Shown here: positions 34,071 through 39,765 of the stretch, piece by piece | How positions within the stretch are numbered: position 1 is the stretch's first letter | Layout of the letters: each line of letters opens with the position of its first letter | Assembly: GCA_963666285.1 (NCBI GenBank) | Contig: OY762711.1 | Source: Sedimentisphaerales bacterium | GTDB taxonomy: Bacteria > Planctomycetota > Phycisphaerae > Sedimentisphaerales > SM23-30 | Length of the DNA: 64,000 bases | Reading direction: 5' to 3' (one strand) | The notes under the pieces: generated by a model | What the model saw: only the letters and a program-made list of their open reading frames with translations | What the model was told of the DNA's origin: nothing | Databases searched by the model: none | Position numbers and translations under genes: made by a program

Positions 34071-36332
34071 CTATTTTCGTTTCAGGATTACCATCTGTTC
34101 CAGGCCGGGTAATCTTATCGGGGTATAATTATCAACGACGAATTGTCTTAAAGGCAGCATTGCCTTATGACGTTCAACTTCGAGTTCGGCTAATTCTTCC
34201 GCTTTTTCCTGGGTTATAGTTTTAGCTTCTACATGTCTTTTAGTTAAACCCAGGCACCATGCCTTGACTTGCATGTCATATGACTGGTTATAAGAATTTA
34301 TCTGATTAATCTTTAACAATTCCCGCAAGGCCGGTTTCCGGGTTTTGGGATTATTGAAGAAATAAGAAGTACCAAGCGGGTTAGTCGGCCAAAGATCAAA
34401 AAGCGGATGATCGTTGGCCGGATAATGCATTTTCTGCGAATCGACAATATATAACGGAGGGTTATTTTTGAGTTGTTTAACAAGTCTCTTAATTTTGTTT
34501 GTCACTGTTTGAGGCGGATCAGAATGCATATCGCTGTATGCGGGTTGGGTTGCCGGGCATGATCTATCAGCAGCTACGTAAACGCCGGGATACCAACCCC
34601 AAACATATATCTGATCTTCCGGGTGTGAAGATTCTTTAATTTTATAACCGATAAGCTGCCAGGATGGCCCGTTGTTTACTTTTGCAGCTTTGACATCATT
34701 GAGTTTTTTACTCATAGCAGTATAGTTACTGCTGTTAGCTAATAAGAAAGAAATACATAAAGCAGCTATTAATGCAGGTATTGCAAAAGTCTTGTTTTTT
34801 ACAAAGACAAAGATAATACCGGCGGCGAGAGTGATACAAGCTGCACTAATAGCAGTTACGGAGAACGGATTAGTTGAGGAACCGGCAGTGAATAACTCAG
34901 CGGCAAGCCACGCAGCACCGATGAAGATAAAGCCGATATTATTTTTGATGCTTTGATATAGGATGTATCCCGCCAGAAACATTATAGAACCGTTAGGCGG
35001 CAGGAAATACTGGACATAGGCACGAGGAGATATCCAGATGAATATCATGTCAAGCAGCCACCAGATCGAAAGAAAAATCATAAGTCGATTAACTATTGAG
35101 TTGGTATTGTCAGTGGAATTATCAGCGGTGTTTGCTTTGTTGAATAGCCTGGCGAAAATGCTCCACACGATAGCGGCTAAACCAAGACCGATGGGAATTA
35201 CAAAGCTGTGAGAATACCTGGCTACTTCCGCAAACTGTTTGGAAAAGGTGCTGACGATCCTGCTGCCGGCGACATAGCCTGAGTCGCTGAAGATCTTACC
35301 GTAGAATTTATCAGTGAAGCTTGAACCGGCTTCAAAAGCAGAGCTTATCACTTCGACGGGATAGCCGATAACCGGTATATCCATCAAGAACTGTTTTGTC
35401 TGGCCCATGAAAGAGAATACAACTGTCGTGATGACAAGGGCAGCGACAACAGCAATGGCACCTCGTCGGATAAGATTTTTGTTGATACGTTCAGAATGTT
35501 GATTTACTTTCTGGATTCCATATTTTAAGCCAATTACGATGAAATACAGTACAGTAATTAATATTGCAGGGGCCGCGGGGAAATCGGCGATAAAACTTCC
35601 CAGTTGTTTTTGCCAGAGATAGAATAATATCAGAGGAATGAGCCCGATGGTACTGCCTATAGATAATAATGATATTTCTTTTAGCAGTCCGGCAAAATTC
35701 CTTTTTCTTTGTATTGAAGAAATAACAAGGTATACCAGCAAAGCGGCGGCCAGAGAAAAACCTGTAGGTTTGAAATACCAGGTATTGATAGCAAAAGCAC
35801 CGCAAATCATGAGCAGGTATTTTTTGTTATACAATTCATAGTAGATAAACGAGCATGCCGCAATTATCATGCAGGCAATCATATATTGTTCTTTCACATT
35901 GCCGAATTTTGCGTAAGGCTGACAGCTAAGGTAGAATGAGCCGAGAATAACAGAAATACATGCCGGGATATTACCGAAAAGTTTCCTGATGCAGATGAAC
36001 GCACATGAAAGAGCGGCGATCTGCATAAAAGACTGTATAATAATCGGTCCGATTTCAGAGTATCCGAATAGTTTTATGCCTATGAAGTTGACCAGCAGGG
36101 TAGCAGCTCCCGCCGATGGGAAAATATCGACACCGAGTTTTTTGCCCAGTGAAAGCTCGTGGGCATGAAATATATTCAATGCTCCATCGAATGGATCGTC
36201 AGTATTAAATTCATAGTATTTACCGATAATAAATGGGATAGCTGCAATAACGAGAGTAATTATGGCAGGAACAAGCCAATTTATCAGTTTTTGGATGTCA
36301 GTTTTATTTTCAGCATTAATAAGGTCATTCAT
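34071..36332 (-). CDS. Polytopic membrane protein, probable GT-C-fold (ArnT/PMT-like) glycosyltransferase
   Basis: More than 10 transmembrane helices, acidic DDPFDG after TM1, C-terminal IYVWGWYPGVY...PLYIVD periplasmic domain; adjacent to a polyprenol-phosphate GT2. Confidence 0.6.
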   Translation of the reverse strand: MNDLINAENKTDIQKLINWLVPAIITLVIAAIPFIIGKYYEFNTDDPFDGALNIFHAHELSLGKKLGVDIFPSAGAATLLVNFIGIKLFGYSEIGPIIIQSFMQIAALSCAFICIRKLFGNIPACISVILGSFYLSCQPYAKFGNVKEQYMIACMIIAACSFIYYELYNKKYLLMICGAFAINTWYFKPTGFSLAAALLVYLVISSIQRKRNFAGLLKEISLLSIGSTIGLIPLILFYLWQKQLGSFIADFPAAPAILITVLYFIVIGLKYGIQKVNQHSERINKNLIRRGAIAVVAALVITTVVFSFMGQTKQFLMDIPVIGYPVEVISSAFEAGSSFTDKFYGKIFSDSGYVAGSRIVSTFSKQFAEVARYSHSFVIPIGLGLAAIVWSIFARLFNKANTADNSTDNTNSIVNRLMIFLSIWWLLDMIFIWISPRAYVQYFLPPNGSIMFLAGYILYQSIKNNIGFIFIGAAWLAAELFTAGSSTNPFSVTAISAACITLAAGIIFVFVKNKTFAIPALIAALCISFLLANSSNYTAMSKKLNDVKAAKVNNGPSWQLIGYKIKESSHPEDQIYVWGWYPGVYVAADRSCPATQPAYSDMHSDPPQTVTNKIKRLVKQLKNNPPLYIVDSQKMHYPANDHPLFDLWPTNPLGTSYFFNNPKTRKPALRELLKINQINSYNQSYDMQVKAWCLGLTKRHVEAKTITQEKAEELAELEVERHKAMLPLRQFVVDNYTPIRLPGLEQMVILKRK

Positions 36333-36335
36333 AAG

Positions 36336-37334
36336 TTATGCTTCTTTCAACAGGATATCTTCTCCGCCCTGAATAATTTTACGCACCACATAAGTTGGTT
36401 TATTTTGAGATTCATGATAGATACGACATTGCATTTCCGCCAGAAGTCCCATCAGCATGAACTGGACAGCCATCATCATCAGCATAGCGGCCAGAACCGG
36501 CAGCGGGCTTCGATCCATATCTATGTGTTGGGTTAATTTGAGATAGATCATATAAAATGCGGTCAGAAACGACATGATCATAGATAATAGCCCCAGGCCG
36601 CCAAAAATATGGATAGGCCTGTTGCTGAATGTTCCCAGGAATTTGATAGTAATCAGATCCAGTATAACTTTCCAGGTTCTGCCGAGTCCATATTTCGCTT
36701 TGCCGTGTATGCGCGGCCGATGATTTACAGGGATTTCAGTAACATTTGCGCCGGACCATTTAGCAATAGCAGGGATAAATCTGTGCATTTCTCCATAAAG
36801 ATGCATGTGGCTGATGACTTCGCTGTGATAAGCTTTTAGAGTGCAGCCGTAATCATGGAGATGTACTCCTGTTATTTTGCCAATAACCCAGTTGGCAATT
36901 TTAGACGGCAATTTTCTGGAAAGAGCTTTATCTTTGCGGTTTTTTCGCCAGCCGCTGACAACATCATAACCTTCTTTCATTTTTTCCAGCAGCAGGGGGA
37001 TATCTGCCGGGTCGTTTTGCAGGTCACCATCCATGGGAATAACTACCTGGCCATTTGCCTGATCAAAACCGGCAGTTAATGCAGCTGTTTGACCATAATT
37101 TCTTCTGAATTGGATAATTTTAATGCGTTTACCGTCAGGGTCATATTCTTTTTGCTCATTCAACAGGTTAGCCACGGTATTGTCGGTGCTGCCGTCATCA
37201 ACCAGAATAAGTTCATAATTCAGGTCATTTTTCTCAACTACTGATATAATATCGTTAAATAGTTCAGCAATATTATCTTCTTCATTGTATAAAGGCACGA
37301 CAATTGAAATAAGTTGTTTGTCAGATTGTATCAT
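36336..37334 (-). CDS. Polyprenyl-phosphate glycosyltransferase (ArnC/GtrB-like GT2)
   Basis: VVPLYNE, VDDGSTD, RNYGQTAA, MDGDLQNDP, GEMHRFIP; two C-terminal transmembrane helices. Confidence 0.9.
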   Translation of the reverse strand: MIQSDKQLISIVVPLYNEEDNIAELFNDIISVVEKNDLNYELILVDDGSTDNTVANLLNEQKEYDPDGKRIKIIQFRRNYGQTAALTAGFDQANGQVVIPMDGDLQNDPADIPLLLEKMKEGYDVVSGWRKNRKDKALSRKLPSKIANWVIGKITGVHLHDYGCTLKAYHSEVISHMHLYGEMHRFIPAIAKWSGANVTEIPVNHRPRIHGKAKYGLGRTWKVILDLITIKFLGTFSNRPIHIFGGLGLLSMIMSFLTAFYMIYLKLTQHIDMDRSPLPVLAAMLMMMAVQFMLMGLLAEMQCRIYHESQNKPTYVVRKIIQGGEDILLKEA

Positions 37335-37729
37335 GATTTTGCCATACTATAATATAGTAAAGAAATCTGCTATCAAATAAAATACTGGTAGAAAGATTTC
37401 TGGTTTATATGAATATAACGCAATTATTTAGTTTTACTATATTTTATCGGCAATAATCGGATCACAAATGAGTAATTTACGTCCTGATAAATTTGCTATA
37501 TGATTGGCAGCAGAAAGGTTATGGGACGTTTGTTTTTGAAAAAATTTTCATTTTTTAAAAATATTTTACTAAAGGTCCATAATTTTTTTTATTATTGGAA
37601 CTTAAGGCGAATAAGGAAGGCCCATCTTGTAAGTGTCTTTTTTTCAAGTGTTTATATTGAGTGATAAGTCGTGTTGATATGGCATGAAAAACAGTTATGG
37701 AACATGTTTTAAAATATTATCGCTCTTTC

Positions 37730-37757
37730 TAAAGTTTTTTGGTTATATTGACGAAAT
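37730..37757 (+). promoter_or_regulatory. Putative sigma28 (FliA) promoter of flagellin
   Basis: TAAAGTTT-N12-GACGAAAT versus consensus TAAAGTTT-N11-GCCGATAA; located about 550 nt before the start codon. Confidence 0.45.
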
Positions 37758-37764
37758 ACAAAAG

Positions 37765-38310
37765 GCAACAGACAACGGTCTATAAAACAGACAATTCCGG
37801 GTTGTTAAGGAACCGATGTCGGTTGCGAGTCTCCATAAGACTCAAGGATGAGCAGGCCTAACTTTGATCTGGACATTCAAAGTGCGGCTGACTGTGAAAA
37901 GGAGTTTGCAACGGAGTTGCTGCTTTTCTTTCGCTAACATATAACAAAAGTATTTTAGATCTGAGAGATCAGATCGCGGTTGTTGTGTGTGGTGGAACCC
38001 ACTTCAAACATCTCGTATCAGAATTCCCAATTATTCACGTAATCAAATGCAAGATCACCATTTAAAAGGTGGTCGTAAATGGCGATTCCTGTGTATCTAC
38101 AACTCCCAGGACGGCGGGATTGTGTACATCTCGCGTTGTAGATAAAAATCTGGCCAAGGGTGCCGGTATTTCGGACAGGAAAGGATTAAAAGTTCTTTAT
38201 CAATGGTACTTTACGGGAATCGCTTGAATCCTAACAGACCAAAACCAGGACGAAGTATACGGTCTGTTGTGTGGACAGGCATTAGCCTGCCTTGTCACGG
38301 AGGATAAACC
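37765..38310 (+). ncRNA. Long structured flagellin 5' leader (or separate ncRNA) with multiple GGA-loop hairpins
   Basis: At least 10 stems seen by eye, including long-range 38082-38092/38213-38223 and 38094-38103/38135-38144; no credible ORF. Confidence 0.6.
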
Positions 38311-39765
38311 ATGACGCGTATTAATACAAACATTTCAGCTATGAACGGGATCAAGTCTTTGGTCTCAAACAACAACGATCTAGCCACCAGGCTTGAGCGA
38401 TTGTCAACAGGTCTAAGGATCAACGCAGGTAAAGATGACCCTGCCGGTCTGATAGCATCTGAAGTAATCCGCTCAGAAATGAAAGGGCTGGAAACCGGTA
38501 TCAAGAACTCAACCAGGGCTTCGAATGTGATAGCGACAGCGGAAGGTGCTCTTAATGAAGTATCTGCTTTGCTAATCGATATTCGCGGGCTTTTGATTGA
38601 GAATGCTAATACCGGTGGTATGTCAGATGAGGAACTCGATGCTAACCAGCTTCAGGTTGACTCAGCGATTGAGACCATTCAGCGAATCGCTAATGCGACT
38701 GAGTTTGAAGGTATCAAGTTGCTGAACGGAAACCTGGACTATGTAGTATCGGGTGTGTCAGCTGCCTTAATTCAAGATTATCAGATTGATAAGGCAAAAC
38801 TGGTAGATGGTGCAGCAATGGCTGTTGATGTAACTCTGGTTAGTGCAGCAAACACTGGCTTCCTGCGTCTATCGACGACGACAACAGGGTTATTAACAGC
38901 GGCAGCCATCCAGATCGGGTCAAATCGAGGAAATACCGAGCTAACCTTTGCCGTAGGAACGAAAGCATCGGGCATGTTGGCGAGCATAAATGCTGTAAAA
39001 GAAGTAACAGGCATTTCAGCTGCCATGTCAGGTTCAAATCAGATTCTGCTTCGCAGTGTTGAATTTGGAACCAATGCTTATGCTAGTGTGGAAATGTTGA
39101 ACTCATCAACAATGAGCAACACCCTGTTTGAACTATATGATGAAGGCGGAACATCGCAGGATTCTGCAAAGGATTATGGTGTAGATGCAATTGCCACAAT
39201 CAATGGTTCTGCTGCAACCGCTGACGGTAAGACATTGACGGTTCGTACCAGTATGCTTGAAGGCACCTTTGAATTGTCAGATGGTTTTGCACTATCTGCA
39301 GGCGGAACAGATTCCTTCAGTGTTACCGGTGGTGGAGCACAGTTTGCCATAGGTTCCAAGGTTGACGCTGTTAATGTTGAATCTATAGGTATTATGTCTA
39401 TAGCTCCTAACGAACTTGGAAATGCTGAAGACGGTTACCTCAATACACTCAAGAGCGGTCAGTTGAATTCACTTACCGGTGATAATTTGTATACTGCTCA
39501 GCGAATCGTTGATGATGCGATCAAGGATATCGCGGTATTGCGAGGAAAACTCGGTGCGTTCCAGAAAAATACAATTGAAACGAATATCAATTCTCTGACT
39601 GTAACTTTAGAGAATGTGACGGCGGCAGAGTCAGCTATCCGAGATGCAGACTTTGCTACCGAAAGTGCGGCAATGACAAGAGCACAGATCTTGCAGCAGT
39701 CAAGTACTTCTGTCTTGTCTATTGCGAATACTACGCCGCAGAGCGTCCTGGGACTACTAGGCTAA
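38311..39765 (+). CDS. fliC: Flagellin
   Basis: RINTNISA...LERLSTGLRINAGKDDPAGL N-terminus; RGKLGAFQ...AESAIRDADFATE...QSVLGLLG C-terminus. Confidence 0.97.
   Translation: MTRINTNISAMNGIKSLVSNNNDLATRLERLSTGLRINAGKDDPAGLIASEVIRSEMKGLETGIKNSTRASNVIATAEGALNEVSALLIDIRGLLIENANTGGMSDEELDANQLQVDSAIETIQRIANATEFEGIKLLNGNLDYVVSGVSAALIQDYQIDKAKLVDGAAMAVDVTLVSAANTGFLRLSTTTTGLLTAAAIQIGSNRGNTELTFAVGTKASGMLASINAVKEVTGISAAMSGSNQILLRSVEFGTNAYASVEMLNSSTMSNTLFELYDEGGTSQDSAKDYGVDAIATINGSAATADGKTLTVRTSMLEGTFELSDGFALSAGGTDSFSVTGGGAQFAIGSKVDAVNVESIGIMSIAPNELGNAEDGYLNTLKSGQLNSLTGDNLYTAQRIVDDAIKDIAVLRGKLGAFQKNTIETNINSLTVTLENVTAAESAIRDADFATESAAMTRAQILQQSSTSVLSIANTTPQSVLGLLG

Follow-up and report, generated by a model that had tools for sequence, protein, structure and literature searches.

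A long conserved structured RNA leader of a flagellin gene in Sedimentisphaerales, with candidate binding sites for CsrA

The control of flagellin synthesis by CsrA is known from mRNA leaders that carry two short hairpins, and the sponge RNAs of CsrA are known, to our knowledge, only as separate small RNAs (sRNAs), mostly from Gammaproteobacteria; we know of no antagonist sRNA in systems of the FliW type and of almost no described regulatory RNAs in the phylum Planctomycetota. In the available text of one source, the hallmarks of CsrA targets are GGA in short hairpin loops and one site on the Shine-Dalgarno sequence (SD), the consensus obtained by SELEX is RUACARGGAUGU, the range of dual-site bridging by E. 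coli CsrA is 10-63 nt, and the B. subtilis hag leader has two CsrA sites, one of them on the SD (PMC7652899). The C. jejuni flaA mRNA, as described in the accessible part of its source, has a 45-nt 5' untranslated region (UTR) with two ANGGA stem-loops and also titrates CsrA (PMC4894983), whereas the sponges CsrB and CsrC carry 13-22 sites, according to the portion available of PMC6546359. Here we describe the leader of a 484-aa flagellin gene located within a 64,000-nt window (G000:C1:5856001-5920000) of the 6.35-Mb genome G000 of Sedimentisphaerales bacterium (contig OY762711.1). This leader is almost certainly a conserved structured RNA, and its constant parts favour, on sequence evidence, a CsrA-binding leader.

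The region between the promoter and the flagellin ATG (38311) spans ~545 nt and, as an earlier note on this DNA had stated, is densely folded and contains no credible open reading frame (ORF). Its minimum free energy (MFE) is -178.3 kcal/mol, against -148.5 +/- 7.2 kcal/mol for 100 dinucleotide shuffles (z -4.13), none of which folded as well; for the leader stretch, z values of -4.1 and -4.8 were obtained against shuffles, and all 19 of the 32 leaders for which z-scores were computed lie between -2.5 and -6.1. Plus-strand ORFs of at least 25 aa differ in both place and length among 32 relatives, and a coding role can be excluded because such ORFs never occupy a constant place; the hypothesis of a small ORF was rejected for the lack of any ORF with a conserved position. 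The alignment consists of short invariant blocks between variable stretches with indels of any length, which, together with the inconstant ORF positions, shows the leader to be non-coding. A search of the window with 4227 Rfam families gave no match at the gathering score, and relaxing the E-value to 10 over positions 37300-38400 yielded only chance matches of the microRNA and small nucleolar RNA type (E >0.7), with no leader match to riboswitch, cis-regulatory or Csr/Rsm models. These results support a large conserved structured RNA of no known family, and the failure of the earlier reader to recognise a family is thereby borne out.

The leader is a single-copy element that is always found upstream of a flagellin gene and is confined to one family of Sedimentisphaerales. 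BLASTN searches with the leader detected it in 22 of 24 other genomes of this family (17 genera) and in none of 16 genomes from seven sister families. A covariance model of the 5' domain (R1) found exactly one match in G000 and in each of the same 22 genomes, and matched none of the 126 genomes examined from the order's seven other families; a model of the 3' module (R2) had no match in a phylum-wide sample that comprised 149 genomes from outside the family. R1 has no match in two family genomes, which are 85% and 78% complete and one of which also has no CsrA and FliW matches. In 22 of the 23 genomes with R1, a Flagellin_N match follows 314-408 nt downstream on the same strand; in the remaining one, R1 lies at a contig end. 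An exact-pattern scan with the SD block retrieved 21 loci from species-representative genomes and 24 from metagenomes; three of these 45 matches (L042, L060 and L061) precede unrelated genes, show no leader and were dropped. Altogether 62 of 65 loci carry a flagellin start and 56 of these are complete upstream; clustering at 95% gave 31 sequences, to which one devoid only of its -35 box was added, for a total of 32. The G003 sequence entered the alignments minus its first 36 promoter bases (it comes from a circular contig, and locus L030, the other end of this contig, was left out). Two DNA runs (X1 and X2) contain the window itself and seem to be its DNA source, and another run (X3) covers it in part. 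X1 and X2 also contain a second leader-bearing organism at about one-tenth of the depth, so that two such relatives share a sample; in this organism, the promoter and SD blocks (contigs at 37709-37738 and 38285-38327) are separated by 526 other letters, and the upstream letters match L017.

Conservation and covariation in relatives, the absence of which the earlier note had listed among its refuting conditions, are both found. Because variable hairpins misalign, RNAalifold applied to raw MAFFT alignments returned fragments only; we therefore assigned helices manually after folding each sequence singly, and pairs were then counted on alignments built with Infernal models and with MAFFT, using shifted partners ("slid") and 500 shuffles as controls. 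Across seventeen helices and four alignments, 74-89% of pairs are retained versus 18-57% in the slid controls, with one exception. In the model-fitted 5' domain (36 pairs), pairing reaches 81.8% (slid, 29-49%), with 20 pairs changed on both sides and 104 cells against 42.5 +/- 6.0 in shuffles (0/500), and in the model-fitted 3' module (21 pairs), 80.8% (28-47%), with 13 pairs changed on both sides and 52 cells against 25.0 (0/500). On alignments made by MAFFT only, the corresponding values are 88.9% (32-57%), 12 pairs and 61 cells against 18.6 +/- 4.1 (0/500) for Hb and Hc (15 pairs); 85.1% (31-45%), 10 pairs and 25 cells against 10.0 (0/500) for the middle domain (20 pairs); and 74.3% (18-37%), all five pairs and 15 cells against 6.9 for the closing helix of the multibranch domain, the exception being one slide of this helix that reaches 71% on fewer cells. 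The two counts on model-fitted alignments lean towards the model, and the three MAFFT-only counts do not.

The substitutions within individual helices are extensive. The base helix of P1 is 77.4% paired (17 A-U and 5 G-C at one pair) and its apical helix 84.2%, with five of six pairs changed on both sides; the base helix of P3 is 76.4% paired, all six pairs being changed on both sides (13 A-U and 13 G-C at one pair). The apical stem of P4 is paired in 97.7% and the lower stem in 75.2% of cases, this hairpin being the most conserved block of the leader, and on a sequence-only alignment the small hairpins H5 and H6 are 81.3% and 84.1% paired, the latter with four of five pairs changed on both sides. 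Throughout the leader, stems vary in sequence and loops stay constant. G-U pairs are frequent (for example, in 8, 12 and 10 sequences at single pairs), and the functional strand is therefore the plus strand; compensatory and G-U changes together indicate a transcribed plus-strand RNA. Conservation at the level of DNA, that is, a protein-binding regulatory region, or a chance property of an AT-poor spacer with no functional RNA, is accordingly difficult to reconcile with the data: although two DNA motifs, GTCCYATAA and AAAATATTATCGC, are indeed conserved in the promoter region, such an explanation is contradicted by the compensatory changes and many G-U pairs in 17 plus-strand helices, by the negative folding z in 19 of 19 relatives and by the conserved SD hairpin, which favours a role as RNA, and we regard it as extremely improbable.

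The consensus of sigma-28 (FliA) promoters comprises a -35 box TAAA(GTTT) and a -10 box similar to GCCGATAA, with a spacing of 11-12 or 15-16 nt. The promoter in the window, TAAAGTTT-N12-GACGAAAT, fits this consensus, and fliA is encoded in the genome (247.6 bits, cut-off 189.6); the predicted start of transcription near 37763-37766 is taken from the promoter consensus only. The strict pattern occurs once in the whole genome. Of the 62 flagellin loci, 56 have a TAAAG[AT]TT box 501-654 nt 5' of the ATG and six are truncated by contig ends; a G[TA]CGA -10 box is present in all 32 non-redundant sequences; the promoter boxes are conserved in 32/32. No sigma-70-like site was found between 37584 and the ATG, and relatives share no further promoter: a string at -248 that resembles a sigma-28 site sits in a variable hairpin. 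The AAAATATTATCGC block upstream of the promoter may serve as an UP element or as the target of a regulator. In most relatives, the 9-mer GTCCYATAA stands directly 5' of the AAAATATTATCGC/-35 block in the orientation of the leader, twice in some (loci L008-L022 and most metagenome loci have it just upstream of the promoter), and may be a transcription-factor site for the leader promoter; in the genus of the window, only inverted or variant copies occur (37519-37527 and 37695-37703, both on the minus strand), and the count in the window alone, 3 versus 1.24 expected, is not above chance.

Contigs of relatives in two sediment metatranscriptomes cover 37788-37943, 38124-38167 and 38261-38412 (X19) and 38260-38492 (X14), and give a weak hint of transcription of the leader; neither library covers anything over 37574-37787 or most of 37944-38260, which says nothing either way. 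These data bear on whether the 5' domain (P1-P4, ~37765-37935) is a separate RNA of ~170 nt, produced by termination or processing after P4 and acting in trans as a CsrA sponge with sites S1-S3, so that only read-through would reach flagellin. P4, in which GCAAC-GGA-GUUGC is followed by UGCUUUUCUU and preceded by an A-rich tract, is the only terminator-like site in the scan, a weak one of 5 bp with a U-rich tail; no other part is conserved as well as the 5' domain, which has three GGA sites, and one contig of a relative covers just 37788-37943, but a length of ~170 nt is typical of the contigs of that run. However, the stem has only five pairs, the tail reads UGCUCAUUUC in most genera, which is too U-poor for the scan criterion, and in P4 the U-rich tail takes part in the lower stem; moreover, the 380 nt downstream are equally conserved in structure and a second promoter is neither conserved nor predicted. 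We therefore consider a separate 5' RNA quite unlikely. A fully independent noncoding RNA, as entertained in the earlier note, is argued against by the absence of a conserved terminator or second promoter, by the constant spacing to the ATG and by the position of the SD inside the conserved structure.

What distinguishes the constant parts of the leader is the recurrence of GGA. The leader holds exactly 16 GGA triplets from the predicted start to the ATG, where about 16 had been claimed, and seven GGA elements are shared among relatives: S1, S3, S4, S5, S6 and S7 occur in 30-32 of the 32 sequences and S2 in 25. Five of the eight conserved blocks (at least 5 columns, at least 85% identity) contain GGA, compared with ~1.04 expected (P ~0.001), and one more, ACUCA-N-GGAUGAG, is interrupted by a single variable position. 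The constant GGA blocks occupy hairpin loops, a bulge and the SD, where GGAGGAT is found in 32/32 sequences. GGA triplets able to sit in a loop of up to 8 nt closed by at least four pairs number 6.9 per leader versus 3.3 in shuffled sequences; 31 of 32 leaders are above expectation, and in the window the count is 10 versus 3.1, which 0 of 200 shuffles reach. The core of S1, CAAGGAUG, is the core of the SELEX consensus as given in the accessible text of PMC7652899. In sequence and placement, then, the conserved GGA sites resemble CsrA sites.

The same blocks bear on the alternative that the leader senses an input other than CsrA, such as a small molecule (a riboswitch) or another RNA-binding protein, and controls translation or elongation, with GGA being incidental or only partly relevant. 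Riboswitch-bearing long leaders do precede flagellar operons in other bacteria, and the size, the multibranch fold and the invariant UUCCGGG and GAAUA blocks of the leader exceed the known needs of a CsrA target. However, the leader matches none of the 4227 Rfam families, also when E-values of up to 10 are admitted, its conserved unpaired blocks repeat GGA and form no single pocket, and its distribution follows that of FliW; FlbT, the other known regulator acting on flagellin leaders, was not found in a search of genome G000. We thus consider such a sensor unlikely, and the riboswitch reading, in particular, finds no support.

As the earlier note had asked, csrA and fliW are both present in the genome and adjacent, 228 nt apart (C1:151642-152375), with scores of 89.5 and 120.3 bits, respectively, both above the cut-offs, and are followed by another flagellin gene. 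CsrA is 69 aa long, and its best solved relative is chain 5dmb_D, which we take to be part of a FliW-CsrA complex. FliW was detected in 23 of 24 family genomes plus G000 and in none of 16 from other families, whereas CsrA was found in 39 of 41; FliW and the leader are confined to the same family of the order. In at least 13 genomes (G004, G005, G006, G010, G011, G014, G015, G016, G017, G018, G019, G021 and G024), the genes are arranged as fliW-csrA-flagellin-flagellin-[leader]-flagellin on one strand within ~6 kb, and in G023 the same order is kept from csrA onward; the full arrangement prevails in most genera, and example contigs are G010:C97, G014:C50, G004:C240 and G011:C117. In the genus of the window, the leader-flagellin unit lies ~5.7 Mb from fliW-csrA and is divergent to glycosyltransferase genes.

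We favour the reading that the leader is a multi-site CsrA operator, or docking platform, on the flagellin mRNA and possibly also a sponge in cis, because its invariant parts are mostly one motif, GGA; judged from sequence, this is more probable than not. The earlier note had offered a cis-encoded sponge, a riboswitch-like switch or an independent RNA; of these suggestions the large structured RNA stands and a CsrA-binding leader is favoured. Under this reading, FliA would fire the promoter from ~37765 late in flagellar assembly, and the ~545 nt predicted to be transcribed would form the 5' leader of the flagellin mRNA. A CsrA dimer could then bridge the S6 CCAGGACG hairpin loop and the S7 ACGGAGGAU SD loop and block ribosome entry, a step modelled on B. 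subtilis hag and C. jejuni flaA as described in the available parts of PMC7652899 and PMC4894983. The upstream sites S1 CAAGGAUG, S2, S3 (GCAAC-GGA-GUUGC) and S5 (CAGGACG) would hold further CsrA dimers, resulting in cooperative repression, a sink function, or both, and the leader mRNA could divert CsrA from the five remaining flagellin mRNAs. On flagellin export, FliW would become free, strip off CsrA and turn translation on. P2 and the S1 hairpin share three bases, and so, speculatively, CsrA bound at S1 could remodel the 5' domain.

A more far-reaching version is that of a dual-function mRNA, whose built-in CsrA sink of seven sites makes its flagellin the most tightly gated one and frees the other five flagellin mRNAs; it would be a cis counterpart of CsrB that evolved independently in a FliW-type system, and its 5' domain (~170 nt) may be released. 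We put this forward only tentatively, as a possibility that is rather doubtful. A further alternative holds that the folded leader, by its 5' stem-loop and its dense structure, mainly protects the mRNA from RNases or Rho, or localises it, and that CsrA acts only at the last two sites. P1 does begin only a few nucleotides from the predicted 5' end, the S6 and SD hairpins of the 3' module on their own resemble the two-site hag/flaA design, and localisation of flaA mRNA has been documented in C. jejuni, according to the accessible part of PMC4894983. Protection would not require GGA loops of invariant sequence at 250-460 nt 5' of the SD, and a short leader such as the genome's other flagellin genes have would need no protection; we hold this explanation to be very unlikely.

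Several points weigh against the CsrA operator. Known CsrA sponges are simple hairpin arrays, in contrast to the multibranch leader, and CsrA does not explain three conserved features that are no GGA sites, namely the GAAUA block, the UUCCGGG loop and the multibranch fold. The total GGA count, 11-21 versus a dinucleotide expectation of 8.4-14.5, shows a modest excess only, and S4 has no GGA in two relatives. The SD hairpin is paired in 93.2% of cases and is nearly invariant, so that covariation speaks neither for nor against its pairing. The co-distribution of FliW and the leader is no statistical proof, because one clade amounts to one event. The contigs from RNA libraries have a depth of 2-3.4, are strandless, permit no reading of a 5' end and could stem from DNA carry-over. 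Finally, S6 is separated from the GGA of the SD by 51 nt in the window and by 46-70 nt (median 61) in 31 relatives, which is at or beyond the limit of bridging by the E. coli protein, and above 63 nt in some, as that limit is given in the available text of PMC7652899.

The common architecture taken from the per-sequence folds comprises, from 5' to 3', P1, P2, P3, P4, two to three small hairpins, H7, H8, the multibranch domain (with its closing helix, Ha/Hb, the bulge, Hc and additional hairpins), H13, H14 and the SD hairpin (Table 1). P1 has the same architecture in most relatives; its apical stem ACAA/UUGU holds the conserved loop UUCCGGG (37795-37801). A pseudoknot between this loop and GGAACC was considered and is not supported, as three relatives change the loop (UACC, GACC) with no change in the partner. 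All of the stems that had been read from the DNA beforehand are in the sequence: GAGTCT/AGACTC (37827-32/37838-43), which overlaps CTCA-AGGA-TGAG (37841-52); ACTTTGA/TCAAAGT (37861-67/37877-83) around the loop TCTGGACAT; GCAAC-GGA-GTTGC (37908-20); GATCTGA/TCAGATC (37958-64/37969-75); the multibranch closing stem GGCGATTCC/GGGAATCGC (38081-89/38215-23) with the inner stem TATCTACAAC/GTTGTAGATA (38094-103/38135-44); and AACAGACC/GGTCTGTT (38233-40/38261-68) around CCAGGACG. Two of the proposed stems fared less well. The hairpin AACCGA/TCGGTT (37811-24) is present as letters but is not conserved, and in the MFE fold and in relatives this region is the 3' strand of the long hairpin; the stem GTCA/TGAC around the SD and AUG is peculiar to the genus of the window, and most relatives read ATGTCACG.

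The sites themselves differ in context. The second GGA of P4 (37901-03) is paired within the lower stem. S4 has two foldings, a GGU-GGA-ACC triloop or GGUGG-AAC-CCAC, and the triloop stem of three pairs is invariant in 31 of 31 sequences; its GGA is not universal, since two relatives read GGUUGAACC. In several genera (L015, L018, L009, L011, L019 and L062), AACCGUG...CACGGUU, a pairing absent from the window, encloses GGUGGAACC; L015 and L018 have UUUUU(U) after it, a terminator-like arrangement that may be a lineage-specific attenuator. Many relatives begin the leader with UCUCAAAGCAAC (alignment A1, columns 1-12), where the window reads ACAAAAGGCAAC; CUCA and GCAAC, the 5' arms of the S1 and S3 hairpins, respectively, recur in UCUCAAAGCAAC. 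When the 5' subdomain is folded, the CUCA of the leader start finds its partner in the S1 UGAG in 8 of 31 sequences, and RNAalifold paired GCAAC with the GUUGC of S3, which could represent alternative pairing.

Table 1. Positions of the promoter, leader elements and adjacent genes in the window (per cent values are pairing retained among relatives).
Feature	Position	Strand	Description
Conserved block AAAATATTATCGC	37711-37723	+	Directly 5' of the -35 box; near-invariant in a 20-sequence alignment
Sigma-28-type promoter	37730-37757	+	-35 TAAAGTTT at 37730-37; spacer 12 nt; -10 GACGAAAT at 37750-57
P1	37765-37826	+	Long irregular 5'-proximal hairpin; base GCAAC 37765-69 / GUUGC 37822-26
P2	37827-37852	+	Hairpin GAGUCU 37827-32 / AGACUC 37838-43; overlaps S1; 85.1% paired
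Site S1	37841-52 (GGA 37846-48)	+	CUCA-AGGA-UGAG; core CAAGGAUG; 30/32 sequences
P3	37855-37889	+	Hairpin; base GGCC/GGCU, top ACUUUGA/UCAAAGU
Site S2	GGA 37871-73	+	P3 loop UCUGGACAU; GGA or GGG in loop, 25/32; median P(unpaired) 0.94
P4	37894-37932	+	Extended hairpin GUGAAAAGGAG-UUU-GCAAC-GGA-GUUGC-UG-CUUUUCUUUC
Site S3	37913-15	+	GGA triloop of P4, GCAAC-GGA-GUUGC; 32/32; mean P(unpaired) 0.91
Hairpin GAUCUGA/UCAGAUC	37958-37975	+	Replaces H5/H6 of relatives (CUGUC..GACAG, GACCG..CGGUC)
H7	37985-38012	+	Surrounds S4; outer helix 87.5% paired
Site S4	37991-99 (GGA 37994-96)	+	GGUGGAACC; 31/32 sequences
H8	38053-38074	+	Hairpin GAUCACC/GGUGGUC, variable sequence; hairpin at this place in folds of 13 relatives
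Multibranch domain	38081-38223	+	Closing helix GGCGAUUCC 38081-89 / GGGAAUCGC 38215-23
Helix Ha/Hb	38094-103 / 38135-44	+	UAUCUACAAC / GUUGUAGAUA
5'-side bulge of multibranch domain	38104-13	+	UCCCAGGACG; holds S5
Site S5	GGA 38109-11	+	CAGGACG in bulge; 31/32; median P(unpaired) 0.94
Hairpin Hc	38114-20 / 38128-34	+	GCGGGAU / AUCUCGC
H13	38233-40 / 38261-68	+	Hairpin AACAGACC / GGUCUGUU; 82.0% paired, 7/8 pairs changed on both sides
Site S6	38245-52 (GGA 38248-50)	+	CCAGGACG in H13 loop; 31/32 sequences
H14	38276-38289	+	Hairpin CAGGC/GCCUG; 68.5% paired, 6/7 pairs changed on both sides; register varies among genera
SD hairpin	38291-38313	+	CUUGUC-ACGGAG-GAUAA(A)
Site S7	38297-38305 (GGA 38299-301, 38302-04)	+	ACGGAGGAU = Shine-Dalgarno sequence, 6 nt before ATG
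Flagellin gene	38311-39765	+	484 aa; start codon 38311-13; carries the leader upstream
Family-2 glycosyltransferase gene (GT2)	36336-37334	-	332 aa; upstream neighbour of flagellin

The product of the downstream gene contains the Pfam domains Flagellin_N (1.1e-28) and Flagellin_C (3.3e-23). The genome encodes six flagellin paralogs plus one FlgL-like gene; the long leader is found on one of the six only, the other flagellin genes have short leaders, and model R2 has no match at the five other flagellin loci. One of these, L024 (G000:C1:152376-152567), with a flagellin gene directly downstream of csrA, has a short, GGA-rich leader in which the SD context AGUCACGGAGGAU repeats CACGGAGGAU of the long leader; this locus, at which R2 likewise has no match, is likely a simple CsrA target. 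On the other side of the promoter, a divergent intergenic region of 976 nt separates the flagellin gene from the GT2 gene, which, together with a gene for a 753-aa PMT_2-like glycosyltransferase (dolichyl-phosphate-mannose type), occupies 34071-37334 on the minus strand; the two may act together in glycosylating flagellin.

On one flagellin gene, an entire family of uncultured, anaerobic planctomycetes from sediment keeps a 545-nt leader of ~17 helices with seven GGA elements. A search of the literature on flagellin, CsrA and FliW leaders, on CsrA in Planctomycetes or Phycisphaerae and on sponges in flagellin UTRs found no description of this leader. If CsrA binds as predicted, the partner switch of FliW and CsrA can be combined with a sink at the level of RNA, a way to rank flagellin paralogs suggests itself, and a large structured RNA family is added to the catalogue for Planctomycetota. 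With the alignment of the family, both covariance models and the map of sites in hand, the idea is directly testable.

The locus can be compared with two kinds of described systems. Like hag and flaA, it consists of a late flagellin gene in a genome in which csrA and fliW are present and adjacent, with one GGA site on the SD in a hairpin loop and a second GGA hairpin ~50 nt upstream, and a flagellin leader that soaks up CsrA has already been shown for flaA, in the portion available of PMC4894983. Unlike the short two-site leaders, however, it is 6-12 times longer (~545 nt versus 45 nt in flaA), has ~17 conserved helices including a multibranch domain, and carries five further conserved GGA elements. 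It is present on one of six paralogs and has no sequence or Rfam relation to those leaders, and its binding of CsrA is predicted. With the sponges CsrB, CsrC, RsmY and RsmZ it shares several GGA loops on one RNA, which in principle could bind several CsrA dimers, as these RNAs are described in the accessible text of PMC7652899. In contrast to CsrB-type RNAs, the leader lies in cis, being fused to an ORF and running without a break into the flagellin SD at every locus; a conserved terminator is missing, the U-tail of P4 not being kept in most genera; and its architecture is irregular and non-repetitive, with no Rfam match. It has seven conserved sites, compared with 13-22 in CsrB and CsrC (from the part of PMC6546359 available). 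By analogy with both kinds of system, we propose that the leader might combine, in cis, the idea of the two-site flagellin leader with that of the CsrB-type sponge.

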